From Neodothiora populina (Eukaryota), in the NCBI RefSeq assembly GCF_041146345.1, contig NW_027191411.1:930001-994000 (forward strand): a stretch of 64,000 nt of DNA. Direction: 5' to 3'. A model generated the notes under the pieces. The model worked only from the letters and a program-made list of their open reading frames with translations. It did no database searches and was not told the DNA's origin. Shown here in pieces: positions 1-63,699 of the stretch. The position numbers were made by a program, and so were the translations under genes. Each line of letters opens with the position of its first letter. The first letter of the stretch is position 1.

Positions 1-1307
1 CGACCTCCCCAAAACAGGCTTTCCAGGACGTCGAGCAGTCGCTCGACCTCGCACAGCACCAAGCGCAGTCGGAGTCGGACTGATTGGTTGAGTGACTTCC
101 GCGTTCGATGGTAGAGCAGCAACGGTAGTAGTGCTAGGCGAAGGCGCAGGGGAAGAAGTCGGGGGTCTCAGGGCGAGATTCCTGAGATATCTTTCCCGCC
201 ATGACTGCCATGGATGCCTCGAGTTCTCTGCTTCAAGCAACTTGTACAGCTCTGCACCTTTCACGGCATAACCATTCGCTTGACCATCTCTAACCCAGGC
301 TAATAGATGCTCATCATCCTGAGTCGTATATGGGGTCCGCACCGTTTTCACAGGGGCTGAAGAGCCAGCTGCCCTGGGTGGTCGTGCTGCCCCACTCGCC
401 CCTTTCGGCACGCCTGCGACATGATCTCCTACAGGAGGAAGTTCACCAGTCTGGATAGCACGATCTATGAAGGTGTATGATAACGATCCGGGAGGACAGT
501 CGGAGCGTAAGTGATCAGCGATAAGGTAATCGGCCTGAGCCTCAAGTCTCACGACAGAACCACCATTCGCCTCTATATCTTTGACGTAGCGCGATCTCAA
601 GGGTAGGCGTTGGGTCAAGAAGAACGATTTGCCAGCGAACAGTGAACCACTTATCTCAGTTGATGCCACCTTGACGCCACTATATGTCACTTGAGGAGGC
701 ATCCTGGACGGATTGATGTCAGACTGTCCCACGACGACTCAGCTTGGGAAATGACATCCGAACTTTCACACAGTCAAAAGAAATGTGCGCGATATGCGGA
801 ATTGATCTACTGGGCGCACATGCCCCAGTGAACGCGGGCTTGAGTGAATATAGGACGTGTTGATAGCGCTTCATGCCGACGCGGCGGAGACGCGTGATTT
901 CGTGATAATTATCTCGAATTACAGTAATTCCGAGATTCCGAGACGCGGGGAGCTTGGGCCATTTTCACAAGCACGGCATAAGGTTGTCACTATGCCTCGA
1001 CAGCGTTTATGCTCGAGGTCTCCTCGATTCAAAGCAGCGCAGTCTACAGTACCTTTGTAGTCTAGTGCAGAGCGGTACATGCACAAGATCTGTGACAAAC
1101 GGGACCTCATTTAAGTTGCTGCTAGAACGAGTCTTTATTCGGATACACTTACTTAATGACGTGGGGATAGTAAACGTCAATTCCACGTTCCGGTTTTCCA
1201 TACGATCCGACGGCCGCATCACTTCTCTCTACCCTCGTCGAAGGCGAGGCAATGTTGATTCCTGAGAAGACAATGCCAATGCCAATGCAACTGCCTATGC
1301 CTGTGCA

Positions 1308-2674
1308 ATGATGTTGGCCTTTCGCAACACCGTGATTGCGGTGCTTGTCATCTCCTTCTTCACTTTCGTTGCCTTGTTTGGAAAACTCCCTGCGTTGAGG
1401 AACACGCCAATCGGTGTCTTACAGCGTCTACTATGTCTGAACATCCCTGCCACTTTCCGTCGTCTCGACACTACATTCACTGGTGGTAGGACCAGTCGAG
1501 CTCTGGCTGGTATAGGACACTACTTGTTCAACCAGAAGAACCCAGTGGTTCTTGTAAGTACCAAGATCGATGCGTGCAATTTATAAGCACGTTGACTTCC
1601 TCCATTACATATTGCTCCTTCCTTTCGAATTTACCAAGCAACTTTTCAATCATCAACGCAATTCAACATAGGATGTACTTTCTCTGACCTCTTTCTCAGG
1701 CCATCTTCTTGACCCTCCTTACAGGAAGTGCATACCTCTTCCTGACAGCGGCATGGCCCCTCCTTACCTGGTCTCAAACACTCCCTCTTCCCTTCCTTCT
1801 CGGAGCTCCATACTACTTCACTTATCTCTGCGTAACAACACGAGCCGACCACATCACCCCTCAGAACCACACACGGCACCTGCACTCCTACCCCTACGAC
1901 CACCTCCTCTTCCGCCCTGACCACAAATGCCGAACCTGTGGCTTCGTCAAGCCCGCGCGTAGCAAACACTGCTCTCTCTGTGGCGTCTGTGTCGCAAAAG
2001 CCGACCACCATTGCCCGTGGGTGAACAACTGTCTCGGCCGCAACAACTACCGCTGGTTCCTGGCCCTCCTGCTGAGTCTGGCTGCAATCGAGTTCTACGG
2101 CGCGTACCTGGCCTGGAAAGTCCTCTCCCAGAGCTGGACTGATCTGGACAGCGCTCTCGGCTGGACGAGCAGGCTCTACTGGAGCCAATGGGGGAACGGA
2201 TTCGTGCGAGCCATCAACACAGGCGGATTGAGCGTGGCCGGCGTGGGGCTGTTGGCAGTCACCACTGCTCCGCTGCCGCTGGGTCTACTGGTCTACCACA
2301 TCTACCTGATCTGGGCGGGCATGACGACCAACGAGAGCTCCAAGTGGGCGGACTGGAAAGACGACATGGCGGACGGCTACGTGTATCGCGCCAAGAGAAG
2401 CGTCATCGTGGGCAAAGAGAAGGAGCGCAAACGACAGAACAGTCTCGGGCAGGGCGATGCGAAGGCTATACTGCCAAAAGGCGAGTGCGAGGAGGATCCG
2501 CCTTGCTGTCGCTGGCCGGTGCCGAATGATCAGATGATTGTGCGCACGACGGATGGAAACCCACCTATTGGCCAAGAAGACCTGTGGGAGAAGGTCAGGT
2601 CGTTGGATGATATTGTCAATGTCTATGACCTGGGGGTATTCCGAAACTTTGTCTGCATATTGCAGGGGCGATGA
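1308..2674 (+). CDS. SWF1: DHHC palmitoyltransferase, Swf1-like (2 exons; intron 1554-1699)
   Basis: C-x2-C...KPARSKHCSLCGVCVAKADHHCPWVNNC DHHC-CRD and TTNE motif; N-terminal FGKLPALRNTPIG is typical of Swf1. A GTAAGT...CTGAC...CAG intron joins the two ORFs in frame. Confidence 0.9.
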
Positions 2675-3033
2675 TGAGGAGTGAGCAGCAACAAGAGCAA
2701 CAACAACGACGGCAACAGGAACAGTCAGAGAGGGAAAAACAAATTGGTGTCTTTTGCTCAAAGGTGGTTTTATTTCGATTTATTCTTTTCTCGTCTGTCA
2801 AGCCATCGTACACATTTTGGTTGGGGGTTTATCCTAGGATAGCATAGCGAGGGAATACACCTTTTTTTTTTCTGTCATACTTGGTATCTCCCCAAATTCT
2901 ATATTCTTCTTTTTCGGATCACACATGCTAGGCTATTCCATTCGATGACCACGCTCGATGCGTTTGTGTCAACAAGGGAATCCTACTGACACATACTTCC
3001 CATCTCATTCTTGTGATGATGTGGTGAATCGCT

Positions 3034-4959
3034 CTAGTCATCGCCACCACCCATGTTACCACCAGACTGCGCCGCCTTCTTGGCACCGCAGATGTCGTCG
3101 ACTCGGAGCAGCAAGCAGGCGCTCTCGACGGCGGTCTTGATGCTCTGGAGCTTGACGGCCTGGGGCTCCCAGACGCCAAACTCATGCATGTCGACGATCT
3201 TGCCGGCGTCGCCGTCGATGCCCCAGGCGCTGTTGCCGCCCTCGGCGTGCTTGGCTCTCAGCTGCGTCAGCACGCGGATCGGGCTGTTGCCCGAGTTCTG
3301 GATCAGCGTGCGGGGGATGACCTCCATGGACTCGGCGATGGCCTTGTAGGGCCATTGGGCGACGCCCTCGACGCCCTTTGCGAGCTGCTGGAGACGCACG
3401 GAGACGGCCATTTCGGTGGCGCCTCCGCCGGGCGAGAGGTAAGGGTGGAAGATGACGTTGCGGGCGACGCTCATGGCGTCGAGCAGGTTGCGCTCGACCT
3501 CGTTGAGGATGTCCTTGCTGGGTCCGCGGAGCAGGATGGTGCAGGCCTTGGGGTTTTGGCATTTGGTCAGGAAGGTGAAGTACTCGTCGCCGATCTTGGA
3601 GATCTCGAACAGGCCGCACTGGGTGCCGACGTCCGAGTCTTGGAGTTCTTGCGGAGAGTTGACAATGGTGGCACCGGTCGCGCGGGCGATGCGGTTGTTG
3701 TCTGTCTTGCGGACACGGCGGAGGGCGGTGATGCCTGCTTTCATGAGGTAGTGCTGGGCGAGGTCTGTGTCGCATTACAAGTGTCAGCAGAACTGTTATA
3801 GGTGGCGGGAAAAGATGCAACGAACCGGACACACCCTTCTCGGTGATGACAAGATCGGGCTTGACAGCGATGATAGACTCGCACATGGTCTTGACCTGCT
3901 CCTCCTCAATCTGCAATATCCGGTTCCAGTCCTCCTCCTTTGAGATCTCAATGTTGGTCTGCGACTCTCCCTTCTTGTACTCGAGAGTGCAGTCCAGCAG
4001 CACGACTCTCGGGTTCTCGATTCTTCTCCTCATCTTGGGGTGTGTGATGTCCTTGTTTACCATGACGCCGTCCAACACCGAGCTGTCCTCGATCTCTCCA
4101 CCGGGAACCTTCTCGACACGTGCGTAGCGCTTGATGTCGACCTCCTGCTTGTCGGCACCGACCTGTTTCGACACGGTTCGTACAGCAGTGAGGGCGAGGT
4201 TGCACATCATGTCTGACCATCTCGAGACGAACTTTGTGCCGATGGAAGAGGAAATCAGACCGTACATCTGCTCGTCGTTGGTGGTGTCTACAGGGATGGA
4301 AACGTCCTGGATGACTGTGAGGGCGTCTGCCAGGGCGCGCTTGAATGCTTGGATGATGACAACGGGATGGATATTTCGCTCGAGCTGGGGCAGAGACATG
4401 GCGAGGATCTCTCCGGCCAGGATGATGACGGTAGTCGTGCCGTCACCGACCTCCTCGTCCTGTGTCCTTGCAAGTTCAATCATGCTCTTTGCGGCGGGGT
4501 GTGCAACTTCGATTTCTCGGAGGATGGCGTGGCCGTCGTTGGTCAGGACGATTCCTCCCATGGGGTCGAGAAGCATCTTCAGCATAGCCTTGGGTCCCAG
4601 ACATGATCGAATGATGTCTGCCACGCTGTTTGAGGCAGTTGTGTCAGACAAGGTAGTGTGTCGAGAAGAGCAGAAGAGCAGGAGAGCAGGAGAGCAGGAG
4701 AGCAGGAGAGCAGGAGAGCAGGAGAGCAGGAGAGCAGAAGAGCAGAAGAGTGAAGGGGGTGAGTCAGGGGTGACATGACAGGTGTAGCGACAGGGGCAGG
4801 AGTCTCTTACGTCTTTGCTGCGGTGATGTTGGAGAGCTGGGCCTTGCGTCCGAACTGGCGCTCACCACTGTTGGTGTCTGAGAGGGCGGTGTCAGCATCG
4901 TTATCATTTCTCGGTAACGAAGGAGCTCACTCACTCATCACCACTACTGGTGCCTGCAT
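3034..4959 (-). CDS. CCT3: T-complex protein 1 subunit gamma (CCT3); introns 4934-4878, 4810-4626, 3825-3765
   Basis: Start MQAPVVVM; SCLGPKAMLKMLLDPMGGIVLTNDGHAILREI, GDGTTT ATP motif, EYKKGESQTNIEI, KLQSIKTAVESACLLLRVDDI. Canonical GT-AG introns restore the frame. Confidence 0.97.
4664..4750. repeat. 8-bp tandem repeat (AGAGCAGG)n with AGAGCAGA-type flanking units, inside CCT3 intron 2
   Basis: Directly visible: agaagagcagaagagcaggagagcaggagagcagg...agagcagaagagcagaagag. Confidence 0.95.
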
Positions 4960-5642
4960 CTTGTCTGGTTTGGTGGACCGAAGTCCTTGGGGATTGGTTG
5001 GTCTGGAGGTAGAGCGGCTATCCTGTATCTTGCAGCGACGACTAGCTCTGTGTCTGTGAGACAGTGAGAAGATCCAAGAGCTGTGTAAGGGTGATAAAAC
5101 AATGTAGATGTAGATGAAGCAGTGATCACTTTCCAATAATGAATGTATCGTCGATATAATTATGCGCTTCTGTCTTTCCACCTGCAACGCCGACTTTCTT
5201 TGTGCCAAGACCTGTGCCGCAGAGCTGCTGCGAGTCGTGTAGCAGTCACCCTCGGGGCATTCCTGATTCAGACGTTTGCCAGCAGTGACAAGAAAGGGTC
5301 GGCGGCAGATGGTCAACACTTCCGACCAGATCAGGTGGACCCTGAGTGCCAAGATGCCGTCCTTGCGCGTTCCTGGCTGAGAGGAACGGAGAAACTCGCA
5401 CCGACAGCCGGAAGCAGAGCTACAGCACGGTACTTGTACAAGTACAGTATCGTACTCCGTACAGTGCCTGACTCTACTGGTAAGGAATCGTACCCTGATG
5501 TCCCGATGCAGCGCTAGCGTCAGCCACTCAGCAACGCTTCGCCGATCACGACACAGCAACCCGTGCCGCCCGTCTGGGGCATGCAGCTCTCGACTGAGAA
5601 ACGTTCCGATTGATCACTTTTACCAAGAACCAATGCCCTTCG

Positions 5643-5662
5643 TCTCTCTCTCTCTCTCTCTC
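5643..5662. repeat. (TC)10 microsatellite in the pyrimidine-rich leader upstream of the 6007 gene
   Basis: Direct reading. Confidence 0.9.
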
Positions 5663-6006
5663 TTTCCCTTCTCTTTCTCTTGCCTTCACTCACCATCCCT
5701 CAGATGCGCTTTTGCTTTCACTTCTGACCGCAGCTTCCAACCTTCAAGCATACTTCCCCCAGCATTCATCCGCCATACATCCCATCCTCGCTTACCTCCT
5801 CGACCCTTTCCTGTCCTCTTCACTCTTATCGCTTATCGTCGCGACTACCCCAGCTCGACGTCACTCAAAGATCTTTCAATCAAGACGCGCCGCGCGCGAC
5901 ACCCTCAAGGAATCGCATTCAGTTGATTTTGCCTGCTCGAACAAGCAGTTGTATTTGTGCAATTGACATAGTATTATTTTACCTCTGATCTAGCAGACAG
6001 TCCACC

Positions 6007-6924
6007 ATGACGTCTTTCTATACCTCGTCGCCCACCGTCATCATCCCCCCGCGACCTGTCCCGGACCAACACTACAGTGCCGGCCACTACCGCGCCTTTC
6101 AACCCCCTCTTCCTGCCAATGGCCTGTTCAACCAGCTGTCCGGGAACTCGACCACTTCAATACCTCCCACCCCGTCTGCCGGATGCCTTGCCGGTCGCAA
6201 ACGCTCTCGTGGCGACACTGACGACGACTTGGACGACAATGCCATCGCTGCTCCCATCGCGCAACCTTCAGTCCCCAAGGGTGAACCTACCTATGGTCCT
6301 GGCATGACTCTCATCTATCCCAGTGACTCCCGTGGCCATTACGCATCGGAGCCAGCTGTCGAAGAGGCAGCCGTCGAGGCTGCTGCTACCAACGAACGCC
6401 CCATCATGCGTAATCGCAAGTCTCAACGCACGACAGCACGTGCTTCTGACGAATCTGCCGCTCTTCCCCTGCCTGAGCAGTCGTTAGCCAGTGAACCTCT
6501 GATCGACCAAGCCACTCGTTTGCTTGGAATATCATGGATGCGTCTCGATCGTTACGAAGGCGGTCGAATCAACCAGAGAGCCTATACACGCTGGATCGAA
6601 TGTCACTATCCCAGCCTGGTCAAAGCAGAGCTATGGTTTGAGAACAGTTCGATCCCCGGCTACCTTGGTACCGCATTCAACAAAGCGACCGGAGCTCAAC
6701 AGTACCTTCTCTGGAGCTTTGATCTCAAGCAAGCTGTTCTGGTCACGAGACAACCCTCCGAACTCATTCCTCTTCTGAGCACCACTCCACCCGCCAACCT
6801 CATCAAGGCGGCTACTGTCTCCATTTTCGCAAACGATCAGCCAACATTTGAGGACGGCAACACTCCTCCACCGGAGGCTCCCGCTTCAATTCCTCAAGCT
6901 GGCGCCATGGACGTTGATGCTTGA
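6007..6924 (+). CDS. Hypothetical protein (305 aa), Pro-rich N-terminus with basic GRKRSR motif (possible NLS)
   Basis: Long ORF with CCACCATG start context and coding-like composition; apparently globular C-terminal part (IDQATRLLGISW...YTRWIECHYP). No family recognised. Confidence 0.75.
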   Translation: MTSFYTSSPTVIIPPRPVPDQHYSAGHYRAFQPPLPANGLFNQLSGNSTTSIPPTPSAGCLAGRKRSRGDTDDDLDDNAIAAPIAQPSVPKGEPTYGPGMTLIYPSDSRGHYASEPAVEEAAVEAAATNERPIMRNRKSQRTTARASDESAALPLPEQSLASEPLIDQATRLLGISWMRLDRYEGGRINQRAYTRWIECHYPSLVKAELWFENSSIPGYLGTAFNKATGAQQYLLWSFDLKQAVLVTRQPSELIPLLSTTPPANLIKAATVSIFANDQPTFEDGNTPPPEAPASIPQAGAMDVDA

Positions 6925-54855: not shown

Positions 54856-56453
54856 TCAAGTGCGTTCGCTACCCCTCAGGCGCACGACCTGGCCATACTT
54901 TTGTAACTTGGTGATGAGTTGATCACCTTGCTTGACGACATCGTTGTATCTATTGCGATCGATTAGCTTTGGTCTATAGTCTTAGCTGTACTGCAAATAA
55001 CGTACTGCTTGTTCTTGTCGTCTGCGACTCTGGTCTCAACCACGCCTCTCACACGGTCGATGGTGCAGGTCAAACGCTGGCTTGCGATGAACGGGGCAAG
55101 ATCGCGGTCCAACCAGTCAACACTGACACCGAAGCTCTGAGACATGCTTTGCAAGCTGACGATCTTGTAGCTCTGGAGCAGTTGAGAGTAGGCGCGGCAG
55201 CGCATCTCCTTGACGTACCACCGTCTGTGCTCGTACAGGTAACGGTCTTGTGAGAGGAAGTTGGTCTCGACGTTGCCGAGTGCCTTGAAGAACACCTGAT
55301 AGTTTCCGGCATAGAGACTGTTGATCATCTGCGCGAGCGGAGTGAAATCGATCACGGGCTCGGCCTTTTCTTGGTATGAGCTGTTTCCGAGAGTGGTGAG
55401 GTTCACAGCGGCGGGTTTCGGTGTGGCGCTTGAGTCGACGTCCATCTCGGTCTCGGTAGACTTGGCGGAGACGGCACCGGAGAAAGCAGCGAGTCGGTCG
55501 TGGGAGTCATCGGACCCAATGATGGCGCGGATCTCGGGAGAGTCGACGACTCGTGACTTGAAATCGCGCCGGGGGAGAGCCACAGAGCCAGCAAGAATGG
55601 CATAAACGACCAGAGACGAGTATGAGCAAAGTTCGTTGCTGGTAAATGTGCTTAGAGAATCGAGTAGGAGAGGAGCGGCCTGAGAGTGGGCGCGAATGGT
55701 GAGGAGGTGAAGGCCCTGGTATGCCTTTAATCTGTTGCGACGATCCTATGGCTTTGGTCAGTATTAAACGTTACAAAAGGTCCGGTGGAAGAGATAAAAT
55801 ACCCAATCACCACCTGACTCTACCAAAGCAGCGCATTGCTCCACGCTCTTCTTGACTAGAATCTTGTCGTCGAAGAAAAAAGCTATGCGGATGATGGCAA
55901 GCACAATGTCGATCTTGCTTCCCAAAATGCCAGTCTTCTCCATCAGTGACTCGTAAGCGGCGATAGCAGCGTCCTTGTCGCCTATCCTGGCATAAAGCTC
56001 CGCCCTCTTTCCGCGTGCTGTCTGAATCTCGGTGTCGCCAGCCTGCTCTGTGGCCTCATCCTCCTCCTTCTGAATAGCGGCCAACTCGTCCTCATTCGCC
56101 TTCTTCAGCTCCTCGTAGGTCTTCTCATCCCACGGCAGTGAGACGCCGCCTGAAGCGCTCGCTCCACCCAAGACTGCAATAATGCTGCTGGTATTGATGC
56201 TCGACGTCCGCCTCAGCGACGGGGGGTTCTTGTGCGAGCTCGCGGATTCGGATTCGCCAGTGGCGTTCAGCTTTCCGGTCTGGGGATGTGCCAGGTAATG
56301 GTAAAGCGGCGCCATCTTGTGTTCCTTGATGCCATCTTGGATAGCTATGCGAGATGCCTCCTTGGCTGATTTGGAAGCAGATGGTGAGGCGATGGTGAAG
56401 ACGTGCTGTGCGAGGCCGAGGTCAGGGTAGCGGAGGTATTGTGGCTCACCCAT
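54856..56453 (-). CDS. RPN7: 26S proteasome lid subunit Rpn7; introns 55802-55746, about 55005-54950
   Basis: KMAPLY, YARIGDKD, GGDW|DRRNRLKAY, LLDSLSTFTS, EMRCRAYSQLLQSY, PCI domain, YNDVVKQGDQLITKLQKY. Confidence 0.96.
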
Positions 56454-56851
56454 CTCTGCGGTTGATGATGGTCGTCGAGGAGGGAAAGCAGAGTATGAGG
56501 AAGAGTTAGATGGAGAAAAGGGGAGACAAGGTGGATGAATGCCAGTCGGGTATTTGATGGATTATCAAGTGGTTGTAGTAAGTTATGAGACACAAGCAGA
56601 TACCTTACACACAAGCTACGGACATGCATCATCGTCGCGAGCTGCCCTTCCTCGCCCACGCACGGACTGCCCATGTGTATACGCCAAGAACATCATCTAA
56701 GAGTACTTGATCTACATGACCTTCCATACATTTCTTCTGTCAGGACACTTAACGTATATACATTTCCGACCATTCTCGTAGAGTTCTTCACATGAGGACT
56801 CGTACTTTTCTTTATATCCCTTTCGTCTCTGTCATCATCGTCCTTGATTTA

Positions 56852-57271
56852 ATGCAAATGGCACGTCTTTTTGCCCCTCAGGCTTTGACCCAGCTTCGAG
56901 CATCTAGTCCTTACGCCTTGCTTTCTCATTATATGCCTGCACGCTATATTTCGAATAACGCAGCTGCATCTGAACTCAACGTTCAAAATGAGGAGAACGG
57001 GAAAGTTCCGGGTTCAGTGAAGGGTTTGCCAGCACCGAATGATAAAGTGACAAAGCTCGACGTCAACGACGATGAAGGAGTGCGCTTCGACCATCTTGGA
57101 CCTATAGTTGTGAACAAAGACGGCACCATGAGTCGCATCACTAATTGGGACAAGATGGCAGATGTAGAGAAGAAGAATACTCTGCGGATCCTAGGGAAAA
57201 GGAACAAAGCTCGAATGGATGCTTTGAAGCAGCAGAACAAGGCTGAACGGGGACAAGACACTTCCTTATAG
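56852..57271 (+). CDS. Small conserved-looking hypothetical protein, possibly with a mitochondrial presequence
   Basis: ORF with motif FDHLGPIVVNKDGTMSRITNWDKM...LGKRNKAR; start uncertain (56792, 56852 or 56858). Confidence 0.7.
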   Translation: MQMARLFAPQALTQLRASSPYALLSHYMPARYISNNAAASELNVQNEENGKVPGSVKGLPAPNDKVTKLDVNDDEGVRFDHLGPIVVNKDGTMSRITNWDKMADVEKKNTLRILGKRNKARMDALKQQNKAERGQDTSL

Positions 57272-57583
57272 TCCTTGTTGGATCAGAAGTCATCTATCAG
57301 AAATCATCAGGTTGAGCCAGCATCGGGGACTAAATCGACCAAGCTTAACATATTGATGGCGAACGTCTCTACCTTTATTCGTCGCAACTGAAGTCTCAGA
57401 TGTATCCAAAGACACGAATTATTGTTGAACTACAGCTCTGTCATGTCTATCACCTCTTGCTCATGCCACAATGCGTAGGCGTCATATCTACCGCAGCCTT
57501 TTGCGGTTCCGACGTCATATGCTTTCCTTGCCATATCCGACAAGTCTCAAATCAGTTTCTTCGAGCATGTCGAGACGCATTGA

Positions 57584-58399
57584 CTAGCTCTCCCCGAGGC
57601 TGGAATCAGAGCCGCTTGAAGTGTGTGCTTGAGAACTAGCCGCTTGAAGTGCATTCTCGTACTCTACTCGCTGAGCACTGCTCACTCTGCCGGGATCTCT
57701 GTCGAGCAGCATGCTGACTGTATGGCCATGGCCATTAGAAGCAGCTGCTTGTAACGCCTTGTTGTACTCTCCACTTTCAGGACTTATATCAGCCCCATGG
57801 TCGAGTAGCATTTCCATCACGTTGGTACGGCCACTTGCAGTTGCAGCCTGAAGTGCAGTTGGGTCATGTGCCGTCTGGAAGTTGACTTTCGTGCCATGGT
57901 CGAGCAGTAGCTGAACGACAGCAGCGTAACCGCGTCGTGATGCGATCCTTAATGCATTTCCACACGCCTCGCGTTCAAAAGTGGTATCTGTACCCCAACT
58001 GCAGTCAAGCAAGATTTTGACTGTGTTTGTACGACCTTCAGAAGCAGCCGCTTGAAGTGCCTTTCCAAATAGTCTCAGAGTCGCCCTGTTATACGTCTCG
58101 TATTCGGCCTGGCCTAGCTGCCGTATCATCGTTCCTTCACTGCTACTGACCGAAGTCAGTAGCACTTTGACTGTGCTTTCGTGGCCGTCTGAAGAGGCTG
58201 TCGGTAGAACCTCTCCGAGCTCCTCGTGATGAGCAATGATGCTTTCGCCCCATGCTCGTGTGGTCAGCATCTTGACTATCATATCATTGTCGTCTTCAAG
58301 GTCAGGTGACTTCAGTGCATTCACACATGCCTTACGGCAGCGATCAACGTCTGTTTCCCACCGACATTCGAGCAAAACCTTGACAATATTGCCATGGCA
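57584..58399 (-). pseudogene. In-frame continuation of the ankyrin gene beyond the TAA at 58400-58402 (further ankyrin repeats)
   Basis: Same frame: LLAAAT*CHGNIVKVLLEC... followed by ALQAAASEGRTNTVKILL, ALRIASRRGYAAVVQLLLDHG, ALQAAASNGHGHTVSMLL. Confidence 0.75.
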
Positions 58400-61241
58400 T
58401 TAAGTTGCAGCTGCAAGCAGTGCCTCTGCATATTCCTCATGTTGGACATTGAGATGTGCACGAAGAGCCGGGCCCCAATACGGGTCGAGCAGTATTTCTA
58501 TCACGTCTGAGTAGCCATGGGATGCGGCATCCCTGAAAGCTTTCCCTAAGTTCTTCCCTTGAACTTCCAGATCTGCACCCGATGCAAGTAGCATACGAGT
58601 TGTGGTTGAGTGACCATGTGTTATGGCCACATAAAGCGCGGTTTCATTGCCGAATTGAGCGTTAATATCTGCCCCATGTCCGAGTAGTAATTTCACTACC
58701 GCATCCCTGCCATTAGATGTCGCCGCCTGGAGCGCGCTCCCAAGCTCTCCGCCTTGGGCATTGACGTCGGCGCCGTGCTCGAGCAGTAGTTTAACCACCG
58801 CCTCACGGCTGCTATAAAAAGCTGCTTCTTGGAGCGCGTTTCCATATTGTCCACCTTGGGCATTGACGTCGGCGCCGTGCTCGAGCAGTAGTTTAACCAC
58901 CGCCTCACGGCTGCTATAAGAAGCTGCTGCTTGGAGCGCGTTTCCGTATTGTCCACCTTGGGCATTGACGTCGGCGCCGTGCTCGAGTAATAGCTTGACC
59001 ACCGCCTCGCTGTTTTCAAAAGCTGCTGCTTGGAGCGCGTTTCCATAGTACCCGCCTTGGGCGTTGACGTCGGCGCTATGCTCGAGTAATAGCCTGACCA
59101 CCGCCTCGCTCCCTTCAGAAGCTGCTGCTTGGAGCGCGTTTCCATAGTACCCGCCTTGGGCGTTGACGTCGGCGCTATGCTCGAGTAATAGCCTGACCAC
59201 CGCCTCGCTCCCTCCAGAAGCTGCTGCTTGGAGCGCGTTTCCATATTGTCCACCTTGGGCATTGACGTCGGCGCCGTGCTCGAGCAGTAGTTTAACCACC
59301 GCCTCACGGCTGCCATAAGAAGCTGCTGCGTGGAGCACGTTTCCATAGTACCCGCCTTCGGCGTTGACGTCGGCGCCGCTCTGGAGTATTCTCAAGACAT
59401 CTTCCGGTCGATCTCTTAAAGACATGATATGTAAGTCGTTGATGTGCAAGTCGTTGATGCTGGTAATACTACTGTCACCATCGGATCGAGTGTCGTTATC
59501 GTTGGGAATCTCATCGACAGCATCAGTATAGTCGTCGTCGTCTACCTCAGAGAAGCTAAGTGATCCAGATTTCCAGGAATTGGAACTTGATCCGCGAGAT
59601 ATGGCTTTCTTGCTCTCGCCGTCCGACATCTCATTTTCATCGCCCAGATGTCGTGGCAGGGAGAAAGTGGCTGCCCTTTCTAGATGGTTTGCGAGGTGGT
59701 TGGACATGTTCCTGATGTTCTGAGTGTCTGCCAAGCAGAGAGGACACTTATCTCGATCATCTTCATATGTAGATTCAGATATTGCCGAGAAGTCGGCTAC
59801 CTCTTGCACGTTCGTAAACTCTGTATGTGCATCTTGCAAATGCCGTTCCAGACCTTGTTGTACCCTAAAAATGAGATTGGGGTGATCGCGACACCTCCAA
59901 ACTCTGCGATGGGCAGCACTTTCATGATCTAACCATGCTTGGCGAGAGCCGTAGAGCCTACTGCCATCTGCACAATCCGTATACGTGCACACATAAGGCT
60001 GAAGGTCTTGTAAGATGTGGGCTCTGATGTCGTCGTTAGCAAGCCTTGAAGGAAGACATCGATAATATATAGATACCTCCAGCCTCGACTACTTCCATAC
60101 TTAGGTGAACAAAGAACGAAGCAATATGAACAGACAAAGTCGCTTCCCTCAGCAGCCGCAGTTGGTGGTGGTGGCAATTCTGCTACATGTCCGCCGAGGT
60201 CTCGTGCAGTGGTGGCGATGGAAACGACCGATTCCGTCTCGAGACTACCCAAGTCGAGCTTTGAGTCGTAACGCGTAGCCTCGGTTGTGGTGTGGATTGA
60301 TTTGCTACCATTGCTTGGCGCTATTGGTTTACTTGCATGTTGAATTTGGTGAAGCCCCTGTGATGGAGGAGCATCCCGCTCGTTCTTAATCTGAAACACT
60401 TGAGGGACGGATTGATCGTGACTCGTCCCTATCGTGGCAAGTTTTTGATTGTGCTTTTCCCAGTATCGAAATTGTCTGCGTCTTGTTACGTTGGCCTCGG
60501 TCAATCGCGATATCAGTACCTTGTCTCGAGTTGAGAACGTGATCGACGAGGAAGACGTATGGTCTAGACAGCGTAGAGTAGCAAGTAGTTCAATGATGTG
60601 AGCTTGGTCGTGAGGTGCAAAGTAATCACCGAATAGATCACGGTTCGTGTCGGGGATGAGTTCCTTATAGCGCGAAGCTCTCGACGATTTGGCCGTTGAG
60701 TTCGGCCCCCGGATCCTGAGAGCGAGCTTATAAAGGCTTTGTATGGTTTCCACGATACCTTTGAAGAAGATGTCAAGTCTATTAGACGATGTGTCGTTAC
60801 CCCTATCTCCATCATCATCGGACGGCAGTGAAATTGCATCGCTGCAGTCGTCGTCCTTGCTACTTGGATCCTCGACTGGCACATCATCCCCGGCTTCGAT
60901 CAGTGAGTCTATGGATGATTAGCAACGGATGGTCTGCTGCAATACAGACTATGCCAGTACGCACGAGTAGAATTTAAGAGACTTTCAAGTTCATGAAGAA
61001 GCTGTAGGACTACCGTCCGCATCAGATTGGCATCTCTCAGGCGCCAGTCCAGTGCACTGTGACCGCCCGCAAGTGCTCCTAGATTTGCCCCCCATATCCT
61101 CAGCCTCCTACCTTCATCTACTATGTCCTTTAGTATATCACCATATCCAACTTTCGCCTCAAGATCGTTGCACAAATTTTCAAAGGAGTGGAGGCAAGCC
61201 ACTGTTGCCGCACGAAGACTTGCTCCATCTGTATGTGACAT
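58400..61241 (-). CDS. Helical N-terminal domain + C2H2-like Zn fingers + ankyrin-repeat protein (introns 60964-60909, 60076-60025); ends at an apparently premature TAA
   Basis: RLRIWGANLGA...ALDWRLRD N-domain; FVCSYC...WRAHILQDLQPYVCTYTDC...WLDHE, WRCRDH, CPLC...HLANHLE; 8 or more ankyrin repeats. GT-AG introns join three ORFs in frame. Confidence 0.85.
58728..59379. repeat. Near-identical 99/102-bp tandem repeats encoding about 6.5 ankyrin units
   Basis: Repeated core ccttgggc(a/g)ttgacgtcggcgc(cg/ta)tgctcgag...gctgc...ttggagcgcgtttcc. Confidence 0.95.
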
Positions 61242-61577
61242 GTTCAAGTCGGTCGTATCTTAGTCCGGATTGACAATGCCATGTTATACTACGACGACCA
61301 GATTCAAGGCAGGAAACAAATCTTGAGTGTCAGTCCCTGCATATCGATATAGCGCCTTAGCTTGGTCAGGTTTGAGGCCCGACCTCAACGACAAAGAGCT
61401 GCTGCACTGAACGCCACCTCGCAGGGCTGATCCGAGCCTTTCTCAGTGCTGGCCTTTTTCGCTGGACGCCTTGAACGTCCCACTGCCAATTCGAAGTCCT
61501 GATTTACTGGAAGTGTGGCAATCTGGCGATGCTGTCTGTCATACAAGATCTTCTGCCATAACATTACTACTTCATCA

Positions 61578-63324
61578 ATGTCAGGTATCGAGGTAGCCGG
61601 GCTAGTGCTTGGAGTCCTGCCGCTGTTCATATCGGCTCTAGAATCATATGAGAAGGGCTTAGGTCCAATTAGATCAATGTTCTCGTATCGAGAAGAACTT
61701 TCTCGATATAGACGCAAGCTCATAGTAGAGTATGCGCTCTATAATCAGACAATCGAATATCTACTTACACCCATTGTCGACGATGATAAACTGGATGCCA
61801 TGATCTCCCAAGGATTCAGTGACATCTGGAAGGAGCCGGCTCTGGCAGGAAAATTACAGAAGCGCCTTGGGAGTCTTCATGAGGCCTATGAAATTGTCTT
61901 AGATGATCTGCGGTCAGTCATCGAGGAATTGGCGACGATGCTAGATATCGAGAGAAAGGGTCATGTACGTGATTTGCTCTGCAGCGCTATGAGCGTGCTA
62001 ACATAGTCATATCTAGTTGTCAGCGCCACACTTAGAAGCGCTTCTAGCTGCGCATCCACCCAAGGCAAGCATCAGCAGAGAAACGCAGACTTTTGTTCAC
62101 CTCTATGAATTTAAAACGCGATTAAAGTTCAGCTTGAAGAGCTGGAAGATACAGCCGCTCCTCGATAAGCTTGGTCGTAACAATGAAATCCTCGATCGAT
62201 ATACCACAATGAGTAGCAAACTGGAGAAAGTGCAAGGCAGAAGGAAGTCAAGCCGAAAGAGTACATTTGCGGCACCACTCCTACAGATACAGAACAGCGC
62301 AAGAAGGCTATACAGAGTTCTTGAGACTGTATGGACTTGTTCGAGACATACTAGCCACAGCCTTAACTTTGGACTCGACGCACGCTTAGCCCAGTCTGGT
62401 GCGAAGCCCACCCGAGCGGGTGAGTCGGAGTCAAGAGTGTGCTTTTGCGTAAGATCTCCCAACTCTTCTCCTTCGAAACGATGGCAAGAGCTCGAATTCC
62501 ATGTTTTGCCGGAATACTCAACGAAGGCCACACAAGTGCGTTTTGCCTCGCAAGCTGCACATGTGTCGGCGGTTGACCCAAATGATCTAGAGGTCGTCGA
62601 TTGTTTGTGTACTGCACTGCAACAAGCGCAGGCAGGAGAAGACTGTCTCGGATTCTGTCTCGACCACACAGAGAAACTGCTCGGCGACTACCCGGTCTTA
62701 CGAGGTCAACGAGATCGTGGTCAGGTTGGCTACAACTCTACGATAAGCTTGAAAGAGCTGCTTGCAGCGTCGAGTACAATGAGTAATACGCAGCGTCGCA
62801 GACTTCTCAATCTCAAGCAAGCTTACACTATTGCACTACATATTACCTCGTCCTTCTTGCAGCTCTACTCGACCCCATTTTTGAAAAGCAGCTGGAGCGC
62901 AGGTGACATACTATTTTTACAGAACGAAGCCCAGCCGCAGTCCATCAACGTTGAAAGGCCCTACGTCTCGGAGACTTCCTCTTCGGCGGGCAAAACACAG
63001 GTAGATCTACCAGGAGATGATCATGGCGCTCTTCTGAGATTGGGCATCCTTTTGTTGGAGATCTTCTTCCGTGAATCAGTCGATGAGCACAGGGATCCCG
63101 CTCAAAGTGGGTCCAACCAGAGCTATACAGACCTCACCATTGCCAGACGCTGGGTGAAAGAGGATAAGGCAGAGATGTCAAAGGCTTTCTATGAGGCTGT
63201 CTCCTACTGCATCATGTCATTCGCCAATCCAGATGCCGACCTTGCGGACGCCACTTTCCGACAAGAGGTCGTCGATCATGTAGTGATACCTCTCAGGGAC
63301 GAAAAGGCAGCCCTCGGCGCTTGA
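61578..63324 (+). CDS. About 564-aa protein: HeLo-like/STAND-N-terminal-like helical domain plus degenerate kinase-C-lobe-like C-terminal domain (intron 61965-62016)
   Basis: MSGIEVAGLVLGVLPLFISALESY N-terminus; C-terminus IALHITSSFLQLYSTPFLKSSWSAGDILF...LLRLGILLLEI...YEAVSYCI...FRQEVVDHVVIPL. GTACGT...CTAAC...TAG intron joins the ORFs in frame. The gene is secure; the domain calls are inferred. Confidence 0.8.
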
Positions 63325-63590: not shown

Positions 63591-63699
63591 GGCGCTTTGG
63601 CGGAGTGGTTAACGCGATGCCCTGCTATGGATTCGAATCCTTCGAGTCTTAGTCCAGGCATTTCCTTCGGGAGCGTGTGTTCGAATCACACAGGCGTCG
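63591..63699 (+). tRNA. tRNA-Ser(GCT) with 28-nt intron (63628-63655)
   Basis: Acceptor stem GGCGCTT/AGGCGTC, A-box TGGCGGAGTGG, anticodon stem ATGCC/GGCAT with GCT at 63624-63626, long variable arm TTCC-TTCG-GGAG, T-arm GTGTG-TTCGAAT-CACAC, downstream T-run. Confidence 0.95.

Follow-up and report, generated by a model that had tools for sequence, protein, structure and literature searches.

Positions 930,001 to 994,000 of contig NW_027191411.1 of Neodothiora populina (NCBI RefSeq assembly GCF_041146345.1), a stretch of 64,000 nucleotides (nt) referred to here as the window, contain a pair of divergent genes between window positions 57584 and 63324. The source DNA is fungal, and N. populina is placed in Dothideales. 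Gene A runs on the minus strand from an ATG at 61241 and gene B on the plus strand from an ATG at 61578, so that the head-to-head starts with 336 bp between them, claimed in a first sequence-only reading of this DNA, are borne out by the coordinates. That reading saw in the pair a candidate immune or cell-death module made of an ankyrin sensor and an MLKL-like partner. Here, we describe relatives of both genes that lie head to head in most fungal loci with enough flanking DNA, a kinase fold predicted for the C-terminal half of gene B, and an N-terminal module of gene A that is also carried by NOD-like receptors (NLRs). The best-supported view is that the pair would follow the known logic of two-gene sensor/effector clusters, with a new pair of coupling domains.

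Gene B is described by join(61578..61964, 62017..63324) and encodes 564 amino acids, identical to the database entry “hypothetical protein AAFC00_006806 [Neodothiora populina].” Sequencing evidence comes from contigs of two runs, X1 and X2, of one sample. Despite being recorded as “DNA?”, run X2 yields contigs that skip two canonical introns and is evidently RNA from the same sample as X1. Because X2 behaves like RNA, both genes are transcribed and spliced as modelled (Table 1), and the contig of the gene B transcript starts at 61502. A coverage gap of X2 at 60849-61439 leaves the first intron of gene A outside its contigs. This intron is inferred from a GT..AG pair read in the sequence and from the frame that it restores between exons matched by the family hidden Markov model (HMM), whose columns 7-95 align to 60966-61223 in exon 1 and columns 101-359 to exon 2 (translation P0040).

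Table 1. Features of the divergent gene pair, in window coordinates
Coordinates	Strand	Feature	Basis or detail
57584..58399	-	Ankyrin coding relic, transcribed as 3' sequence	Same frame; Pfam Ank_2 E 9e-27
58400..58402	-	TAA in frame within an ankyrin repeat; gene A effectively stops here in this strain	
58403..59356	-	Gene A ankyrin repeats ahead of the stop	Pfam Ank E 2.5e-50, 8 stretches
59640..60023	-	Start of gene A exon 3, with the AcuF-type C2H2 zinc-finger region	PF26082 in relatives
60024..60076	-	Gene A intron 2, 53 nt	Joint 60023->60077, CT..AC on + strand, X2 contig
60077..60908	-	Gene A exon 2: acidic linker, conserved motifs, first Cys pair of zinc-finger region	
60909..60964	-	Gene A intron 1, 56 nt, inferred	GTGCGT..CTAAT..TAG
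60965..61241	-	A-module helical region at the N terminus (gene A exon 1)	92 codons + 1 base; open reading frame, GT donor
61242..61577		Shared intergenic region, putative bidirectional promoter	Coordinates of both ATGs
61578..61964	+	Helical domain at the N terminus (gene B exon 1)	
61965..62016	+	Gene B intron, 52 nt, GTACGT..CTAAC..TAG	GT..AG joint 61964->62017, X2 contig
62017..62292	+	Start of gene B exon 2, with the connecting helices (residues ~130-221)	AlphaFold2 model
62293..63324	+	Gene B DUF7580, pseudokinase-like, residues ~222-564, plus stop codon	

The only Pfam match in gene B (P0003) is DUF7580 (PF24476) at residues 219-558, with 103.7 bits (E 2e-29) at a Pfam cut-off of 27 bits, and the same domain is matched in 59 of 60 aligned relatives. 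The gene B family comprises 3007 representatives (50% identity, E ≤0.001), mostly of 520 to 620 amino acids and matching from end to end. An AlphaFold2 model of gene B built from 60 sequences, with a mean predicted local distance difference test score (pLDDT) of 84.9 and a predicted template modelling score of 0.70, places helices at residues 3-35, 37-63, 69-77, 82-85, and 87-121, and then at 132-141, 150-207, and 214-234. The connecting region includes the 58-residue helix 150-207, and a mixed strand/helix domain continues from there onward to the C terminus. When the whole model was searched with Foldseek, the best 50 matches listed were all protein kinase domains, none of them at E ≤0.001, with the human MLKL pseudokinase at rank 1 (E 0.035, probability 0.97). 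Full-length mouse MLKL is, among the matches listed, the only solved chain aligned over model residues 35-557, at about 13% identity and with a root mean square deviation of 19.5 for the full-length alignment. By Z score, the closest kinase folds are BRAF and TNNI3K, level with many others. The DUF7580 half shows a two-lobed protein kinase-like fold in this comparison, and the model makes a solid case for DUF7580 as a kinase-fold domain, in agreement with the kinase-like C-terminal region first claimed for the gene starting at 61578.

At the sequence level, the Pfam models Pkinase and PK_Tyr_Ser-Thr match none of the 60 relatives and none of 20 C-terminal halves, and a regular expression for the catalytic loop and DFG motif, written from general knowledge, matches no protein examined. 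The absence of Pfam kinase matches would fit a pseudokinase. Conserved columns of DUF7580 include Q411, L412, W417, W422, D426, L471, L475, and E477. Against PDB sequences, the C-terminal half of DUF7580 (alignment A7) retrieves the NFR5 pseudokinase at E 0.38 and a leucine-rich repeat kinase at E 2.1, neither of them significant, and the whole gene B alignment (A1) retrieves coiled-coil noise only. Comparison of DUF7580 with a two-sequence kinase alignment gives a probability of 0.16 over 11 aligned columns. The MLKL-like domain order proposed for gene B is found, with a C-terminal kinase-like fold that has no Pfam kinase match.

At the opposite end of the protein, hydropathy reaches its peak over residues 3-21 (Kyte-Doolittle mean, 2.1), and G3, E5, G8, L11, and P15 are near-invariant among relatives. 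The hydrophobic N-terminal helix noted in the sequence-only reading is thereby recovered, with membrane insertion as a putative property. The AlphaFold2 model of the N-terminal domain (pLDDT 86.0) has helices at residues 3-27, 32-63, 69-78, 82-85, and 87-121. Protein language-model features of residues 1-215 have HeLo as their nearest named clusters (0.94, with 179 shared features). Atlas clusters combine DUF7580 with HeLo, Peptidase_S8, and PNP_UDP_1, and in sister clusters a Pfam-recognised HeLo precedes DUF7580 in 27 to 75% of members. Pfam HeLo (PF14479) gives no match for P0003 at E ≤1 and matches 1 of 60 relatives, at E 0.045 and under the cut-off, while the N-terminal alignment of B (A3) has a best E of 0.029 against PDB sequences, to an unrelated protein. 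We treat “HeLo-like” as a lead for this domain, toward which the language-model features alone point.

Relatives of gene A share approximately 370 N-terminal residues plus the finger region. This A module starts with some 95 helical residues and continues through a linker, itself marked by fixed motifs, into three to four C2H2 fingers of the AcuF type. W50 and R67 are invariant in the alignment of A N termini (A6), and gene A keeps all invariant Cys and His residues of the AcuF-type C2H2 region and 29 of 29 invariant columns of the finger alignment (A2). The local Pfam copy returns no match to PF26082 (zf-C2H2_AcuF) in gene A. Precomputed annotation places this family on 28 of 30 gene A relatives, the best of which has E 4.9e-36; it is lacking from P0009, the closest relative (E 2.3e-63), and from two others. 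Through its annotated relatives and the invariant columns, gene A belongs to the AcuF-type C2H2 finger family. No gene A exon matches NACHT or NB-ARC in Pfam, and the zinc fingers described in place of these domains are indeed there. In searches of PDB sequences, we recovered no solved relative of the module, alignment A2 yielding only a Macro domain match from its C-terminal columns and the profile of the N terminus (A6) yielding no match. The first 95 residues of gene A show a weak HeLo match (E 0.097 for the open reading frame [ORF] of the window, and E 0.019 in 1 of 18 relatives), and a profile-profile comparison of the A and B N termini gives a probability of 0.1. A HeLo domain in the A N terminus is unconfirmed and is taken as a lead only.

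The A module is not restricted to proteins of the gene A type. NACHT or NB-ARC is carried by the relatives L063, L064, L069, L057, and P0060: NACHT lies in the same ORF as the A fingers in L064, HET and NACHT are followed by WD40 in L063, NB-ARC occurs with the A module in L069, and P0060 combines NB-ARC with TPR. Other C-terminal parts following the A module are DUF6590, Macro, WD40, TPR, ANK, and Pkinase, of which the Macro type forms the largest group among the loci (12 loci) and is seen in many named Dothideomycete proteins of about 2000 amino acids. Gene A is a member without a NOD domain in a family whose shared module also stands at the head of true NLRs. The earlier statement that the system needs no NOD domain is true at this locus; it does not carry over to the relatives in which the same module heads NACHT/NB-ARC NLRs, which makes the pair a system linked to NLRs, some of whose members have no NOD domain. 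We also observe an A-module protein of Lasiosphaeria hispida (P0032, 876 amino acids) with WD40 repeats that hardly differ from one another, an internal conservation like that of the ankyrin array of the window.

That array lies at 58749-59378, where Tandem Repeats Finder reports a period of 99 nt, 6.3 copies, and 89% matches, in line with the near-identical ankyrin repeats first described. Its six units have a mutual DNA identity of 79 to 97%, with amino acid changes at unit positions 3 and 13-17. High internal identity of C-terminal repeats, a criterion applied to fungal NLRs, is thus a property of the gene A ankyrins. The term “hypervariable” is apt for variation among the internal repeats of this one allele, but not for variation between alleles, as no second allele was seen.

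Gene A ends earlier than 57584, the end assigned to it in the sequence-only reading, and positions 57584-58399 are cut off by an in-frame TAA at 58402-58400. This codon is present in X1 and X2 contigs with 0 differences, and the X2 contig, which spans 57500-58781, is unspliced across it. Because the TAA stands in both runs and is crossed unspliced, gene A as sequenced encodes 910 amino acids, its third exon spanning 60023..58400 up to the TAA. Past this point the frame remains open for 271 further codons, to 57587, with a stop at 57584-57586, and reaching 57584 therefore needs read-through of the in-frame TAA. An intron removing the TAA was rejected, as the sequence offers no suitable GT..AG pair whose length would preserve the frame and the X2 contig runs through this region unspliced. 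Repeat-induced point mutation was likewise rejected as the cause of the stop: the TpA/ApT ratio is 1.4, but the second index is 1.12 and the GC content 0.59, which gives no clear signature. The ankyrin array compares with the whole window at a TpA/ApT of 1.4 versus 0.64 and a GC content of 0.59 versus 0.514. The gene A protein is absent from the protein collection searched, and the gene B protein is present in it.

We observe that the head-to-head arrangement recurs among fungi. JGI metagenome contigs, scanned with alignment A2 of the A fingers, yielded 74 loci with 28 to 54% identity to the window, 72 of which contain the zinc-finger segment. Each locus was searched in six frames with HMMs of both families, counting a match at E ≤1e-5 as a gene B relative, and 47 loci were testable, having 1000 nt or more upstream of the inferred start of A or, counted from the fingers, 2300 nt or more upstream. 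A gene B relative lies upstream on the opposite strand in 43 of these 47 loci and, after merging of loci at 95% or higher nucleotide identity, in 35 of 37 groups. Start-to-start gaps are 185 to 844 nt in 32 cases (median, approximately 390), and two more are 1140 and 2628 nt. As a background, 318,257 bp downstream of the finger contained one B match, the gene fusion in locus L052, and no B match was found in 85,508 bp located more than 6 kb upstream of the finger. Recurrence of the linkage had been named as a check in the sequence-only reading and is what these counts give; the evidence that the linkage is more general than the window alone is strong.

Some of these loci are of interest for their layout. 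L053 contains, at 14-6320, a cluster of an A-type gene at 14-1475 (minus strand), gene B at 2151-4014 (minus strand), and a further A-type gene from 4384 onward (plus strand). In L052, one ORF at 138-2654 (plus strand) encodes both AcuF-type fingers and DUF7580 (Pfam E 1.2e-11; B-HMM columns 150-571); this fusion is without the N-terminal helical domain of B, and the near-identical L053 copy also has a separate head-to-head B. Loci L071 and L072 (1-8243) are 98.7% identical from 530 nt upstream of A onward and unrelated further upstream, with the B gene of L071 located 2.6 kb off; a rearrangement, an insertion, or an assembly difference could account for this. Among 32 A-B intergenic regions (31 loci and the window), the 7-mer ACCCCGC occurs in 12 (shuffle maximum, 8) and is absent from that of the window; for AAGGCTGA, the count is 8 of 32 against a maximum of 6 in shuffled sequence. 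Both counts include many loci that are orthologues and related by descent.

The two genes also diverge together. Over 28 pairs, the p-distances of A and B are correlated with a Pearson r of 0.835, a value reached by 0 of 2000 permutations. Maximum likelihood trees of A and B both contain an NLR-type clade (SH-like approximate likelihood ratio support of 88.7 and 96.8, respectively), a Macro-type clade (88.5 and 100), and a clade of the window with L001 (95.0 and 98.9), the groups having been named only after the first trees were inspected. Just beyond B, on the minus strand and at about positions 1.2 to 4.8 kb of the loci, an SMI1/KNR4 (PF09346) gene is found in L006, L007, L009, L014, L017, L024, and L070. 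From this shared neighbour, the pairs of these seven Macro-type loci have the look of stable orthologues within a block of synteny, and some of the co-divergence is plain orthology.

The pair in the window is flanked by a core gene and a tRNA, in line with the core genes and tRNA originally claimed: an RPN7 proteasome-lid fragment lies at 55764-56453 (minus strand, E 1.5e-30), and Rfam identifies a tRNA gene at 63591-63699 (plus strand, 45 bits, E 2.7e-07) that ARAGORN did not call. At 109 nt, this tRNA gene is of a size that points to an intron or to an extra arm of unusual length. A 159-amino-acid ORF without a Pfam match is located at 56792-57271 (plus strand), and the X2 contig of the gene A transcript extends approximately 250 nt beyond 57500 in its direction.

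We hold with moderate confidence that the locus is a copy of an old and widespread two-gene module of filamentous ascomycetes, pairing a sensor with an MLKL-like effector in a putative immune or cell-death role. Gene A would be the receiving part, in which the exchangeable C terminus (here, the ankyrins) senses, and a change in this C terminus through ligand binding or oligomerisation would be relayed via the A module to the pseudokinase-like domain of B. Gene B would be the acting part, with the hydrophobic helical domain, connecting helices, and kinase-fold domain arranged in the order of MLKL, and its N-terminal helix would then be released and act on membranes, leading to cell death or a related defence response. 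More tentatively, we propose that the A module and the DUF7580 pseudokinase are cognate coupling domains that would contact each other, constituting a third sensor-effector switch that is neither amyloid nor proteolytic. This switch would be Pezizomycotina-wide and duplicated as a unit, coupling NLR sensors as well as NOD-less sensors with ANK, WD40, TPR, Macro, or kinase domains to a putatively membrane-acting MLKL-like effector.

Several of our observations weigh against a sensor/effector module of this kind. The linkage is counted from the A side, since the scan was made with the A fingers, and an A orthologue was not found in the two species with the closest named B orthologues. Two groups are without a head-to-head B, namely, L046/L047, whose A corresponds to the second A gene in the left half of the A'-B-A arrangement of three genes that L053 contains in full, and L056, where the upstream DNA is limited to 1244 nt. 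L072 has no B within 8 kb, though its 98.7%-identical twin L071 has one. The distances of A and B have a Spearman correlation of only 0.389, with the same nearest neighbour in 13 of 28 pairs, and agreement between the two trees can come in part from shared species history. The HeLo or four-helix-bundle fold claimed for the N terminus of gene B was not recovered, as neither HeLo nor the MLKL bundle is among the matches listed in the fold search of this domain, with Pfam HeLo at 1 of 60 relatives. Gene A is shortened by the premature stop, and this copy may be weakened or decaying. Finally, the Macro-type orthologues suit housekeeping signalling as well as immunity.

This last point leads to the main rival, which we consider unlikely: the pair may be a conserved signalling or regulatory module that does not kill, with the NLR-like members as later add-ons, and B scaffolding or regulating A, or A doing so for B, in a pathway linked to stress, the cell wall, or ADP-ribose. 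C2H2 fingers are commonly nucleic-acid binding, which counts for such a role, as do the 12 Macro-domain loci (the largest group, 7 of them with the SMI1/KNR4 neighbour and stable enough to fit equally well) and a HeLo fold of B that the fold search leaves unconfirmed. However, the A module occupies the position of the signalling or effector domain in fungal NLRs, and repeats of high internal identity are found in both the window and P0032. The Atlas, moreover, joins DUF7580 to HeLo, the S8 protease, and PNP_UDP_1, the usual NLR-associated effector domains. In Neurospora crassa, the part of the pangenome study PMC13412767 available to us lists zf-C2H2_AcuF among the families most variable, or dispersed, in copy number, alongside HET, which also speaks against a purely regulatory module.

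That the module is decayed or disabled in this strain is possible but rather doubtful; some 270 ankyrin residues would be lost, A would not sense, and B would be an orphan or repurposed. The TAA in contigs of both the DNA run and the spliced transcript, followed by 271 open ankyrin codons, argues for this, as does the missing gene A protein in the collection searched. Yet in the 910 amino acids the A module is complete and some nine ankyrin repeats remain, spliced transcripts are seen for both genes, the length of open frame past the stop speaks for a change of recent date, and the evidence is that of one sample. Quite improbable, in our estimate, is that the linkage reflects nothing but a shared bidirectional promoter or a block of low recombination, with products that are not in contact. 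Such an origin would be favoured by the short shared intergenic region (336 bp here and 185 to 844 nt in relatives), which promotes co-retention; it is at odds with a linkage that persists in loci only 28 to 47% identical to the window and under widely differing architectures of A, with the matching deep clades of the A and B trees, with the fusion of A fingers to DUF7580 in L052, and with the absence of the 7-mer ACCCCGC from the window's intergenic region.

The background to a sensor/effector reading of the pair is what is known of fungi, where death- or immune-like gene pairs include an NLR with a HeLo protein, coupled via amyloid templating, and a protease with a gasdermin. The analysis gives DUF7580 a kinase-like fold and places the AcuF-type finger family in a genomic context, and for the many fungal proteins that combine a HeLo-like with a kinase-like part it points to the A gene as a concrete candidate for the upstream activator that would switch them. 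In the literature searched, with supplements and subscription journals excepted, we found no description of the A/B pair or of DUF7580. The accessible part of a survey of Sordariales NLRs reports 34 NLRs with C2H2 fingers, and zinc fingers of whichever type as sole domain at the N terminus in five (PMC12258605), while “zinc” and “C2H2” never occur in the available text of a 2022 survey of NLR N termini (PMC9815663).

The closest known arrangement is that of NWD2/HET-S and other amyloid-signalling pairs of NLR and HeLo(-like) proteins, whose features are taken here from the accessible portions of PMC9815663 and PMC12881547. As in those pairs, the genes are adjacent, the sensor (often an NLR) has exchangeable repeats and carries its conserved piece at the N terminus, and the partner joins an N-terminal hydrophobic helical domain to a C-terminal regulatory part. 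Unlike their short amyloid motif, the conserved pieces here are a C2H2 module of approximately 500 residues in A and a kinase-fold domain of approximately 340 residues in B, and HeLo membership of the gene B N terminus is not established. A split between sensing and execution, often in divergent genes, is likewise seen in protease/gasdermin clusters of the het-Q type and in plant sensor/helper NLR pairs (PMC12881547 and PMC12258605, in the parts available); in contrast to these, the locus encodes no protease and no gasdermin, and its second gene is not an NLR. A 2025 review also mentions, in its accessible part, HELL domains in some proteins with a kinase or pseudokinase domain and gasdermin-controlling proteases that can be fused to predicted kinase-like domains (PMC12881547), but for these that part names no partner gene, C2H2 module, or DUF7580. 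With MLKL of animals and plants, gene B shares the succession of a helical domain, connecting helices, and a kinase-fold domain without a Pfam kinase match, and differs in an N-terminal domain that did not match the four-helix bundle among the matches listed. As in the RIPK3/MLKL pair, some relatives of gene A carry a real kinase domain, whereas the partner gene in the window has none. If the proposed module is real, the parallel between fungal and animal necroptosis would extend from the helical domain of the executioner to its pseudokinase switch.

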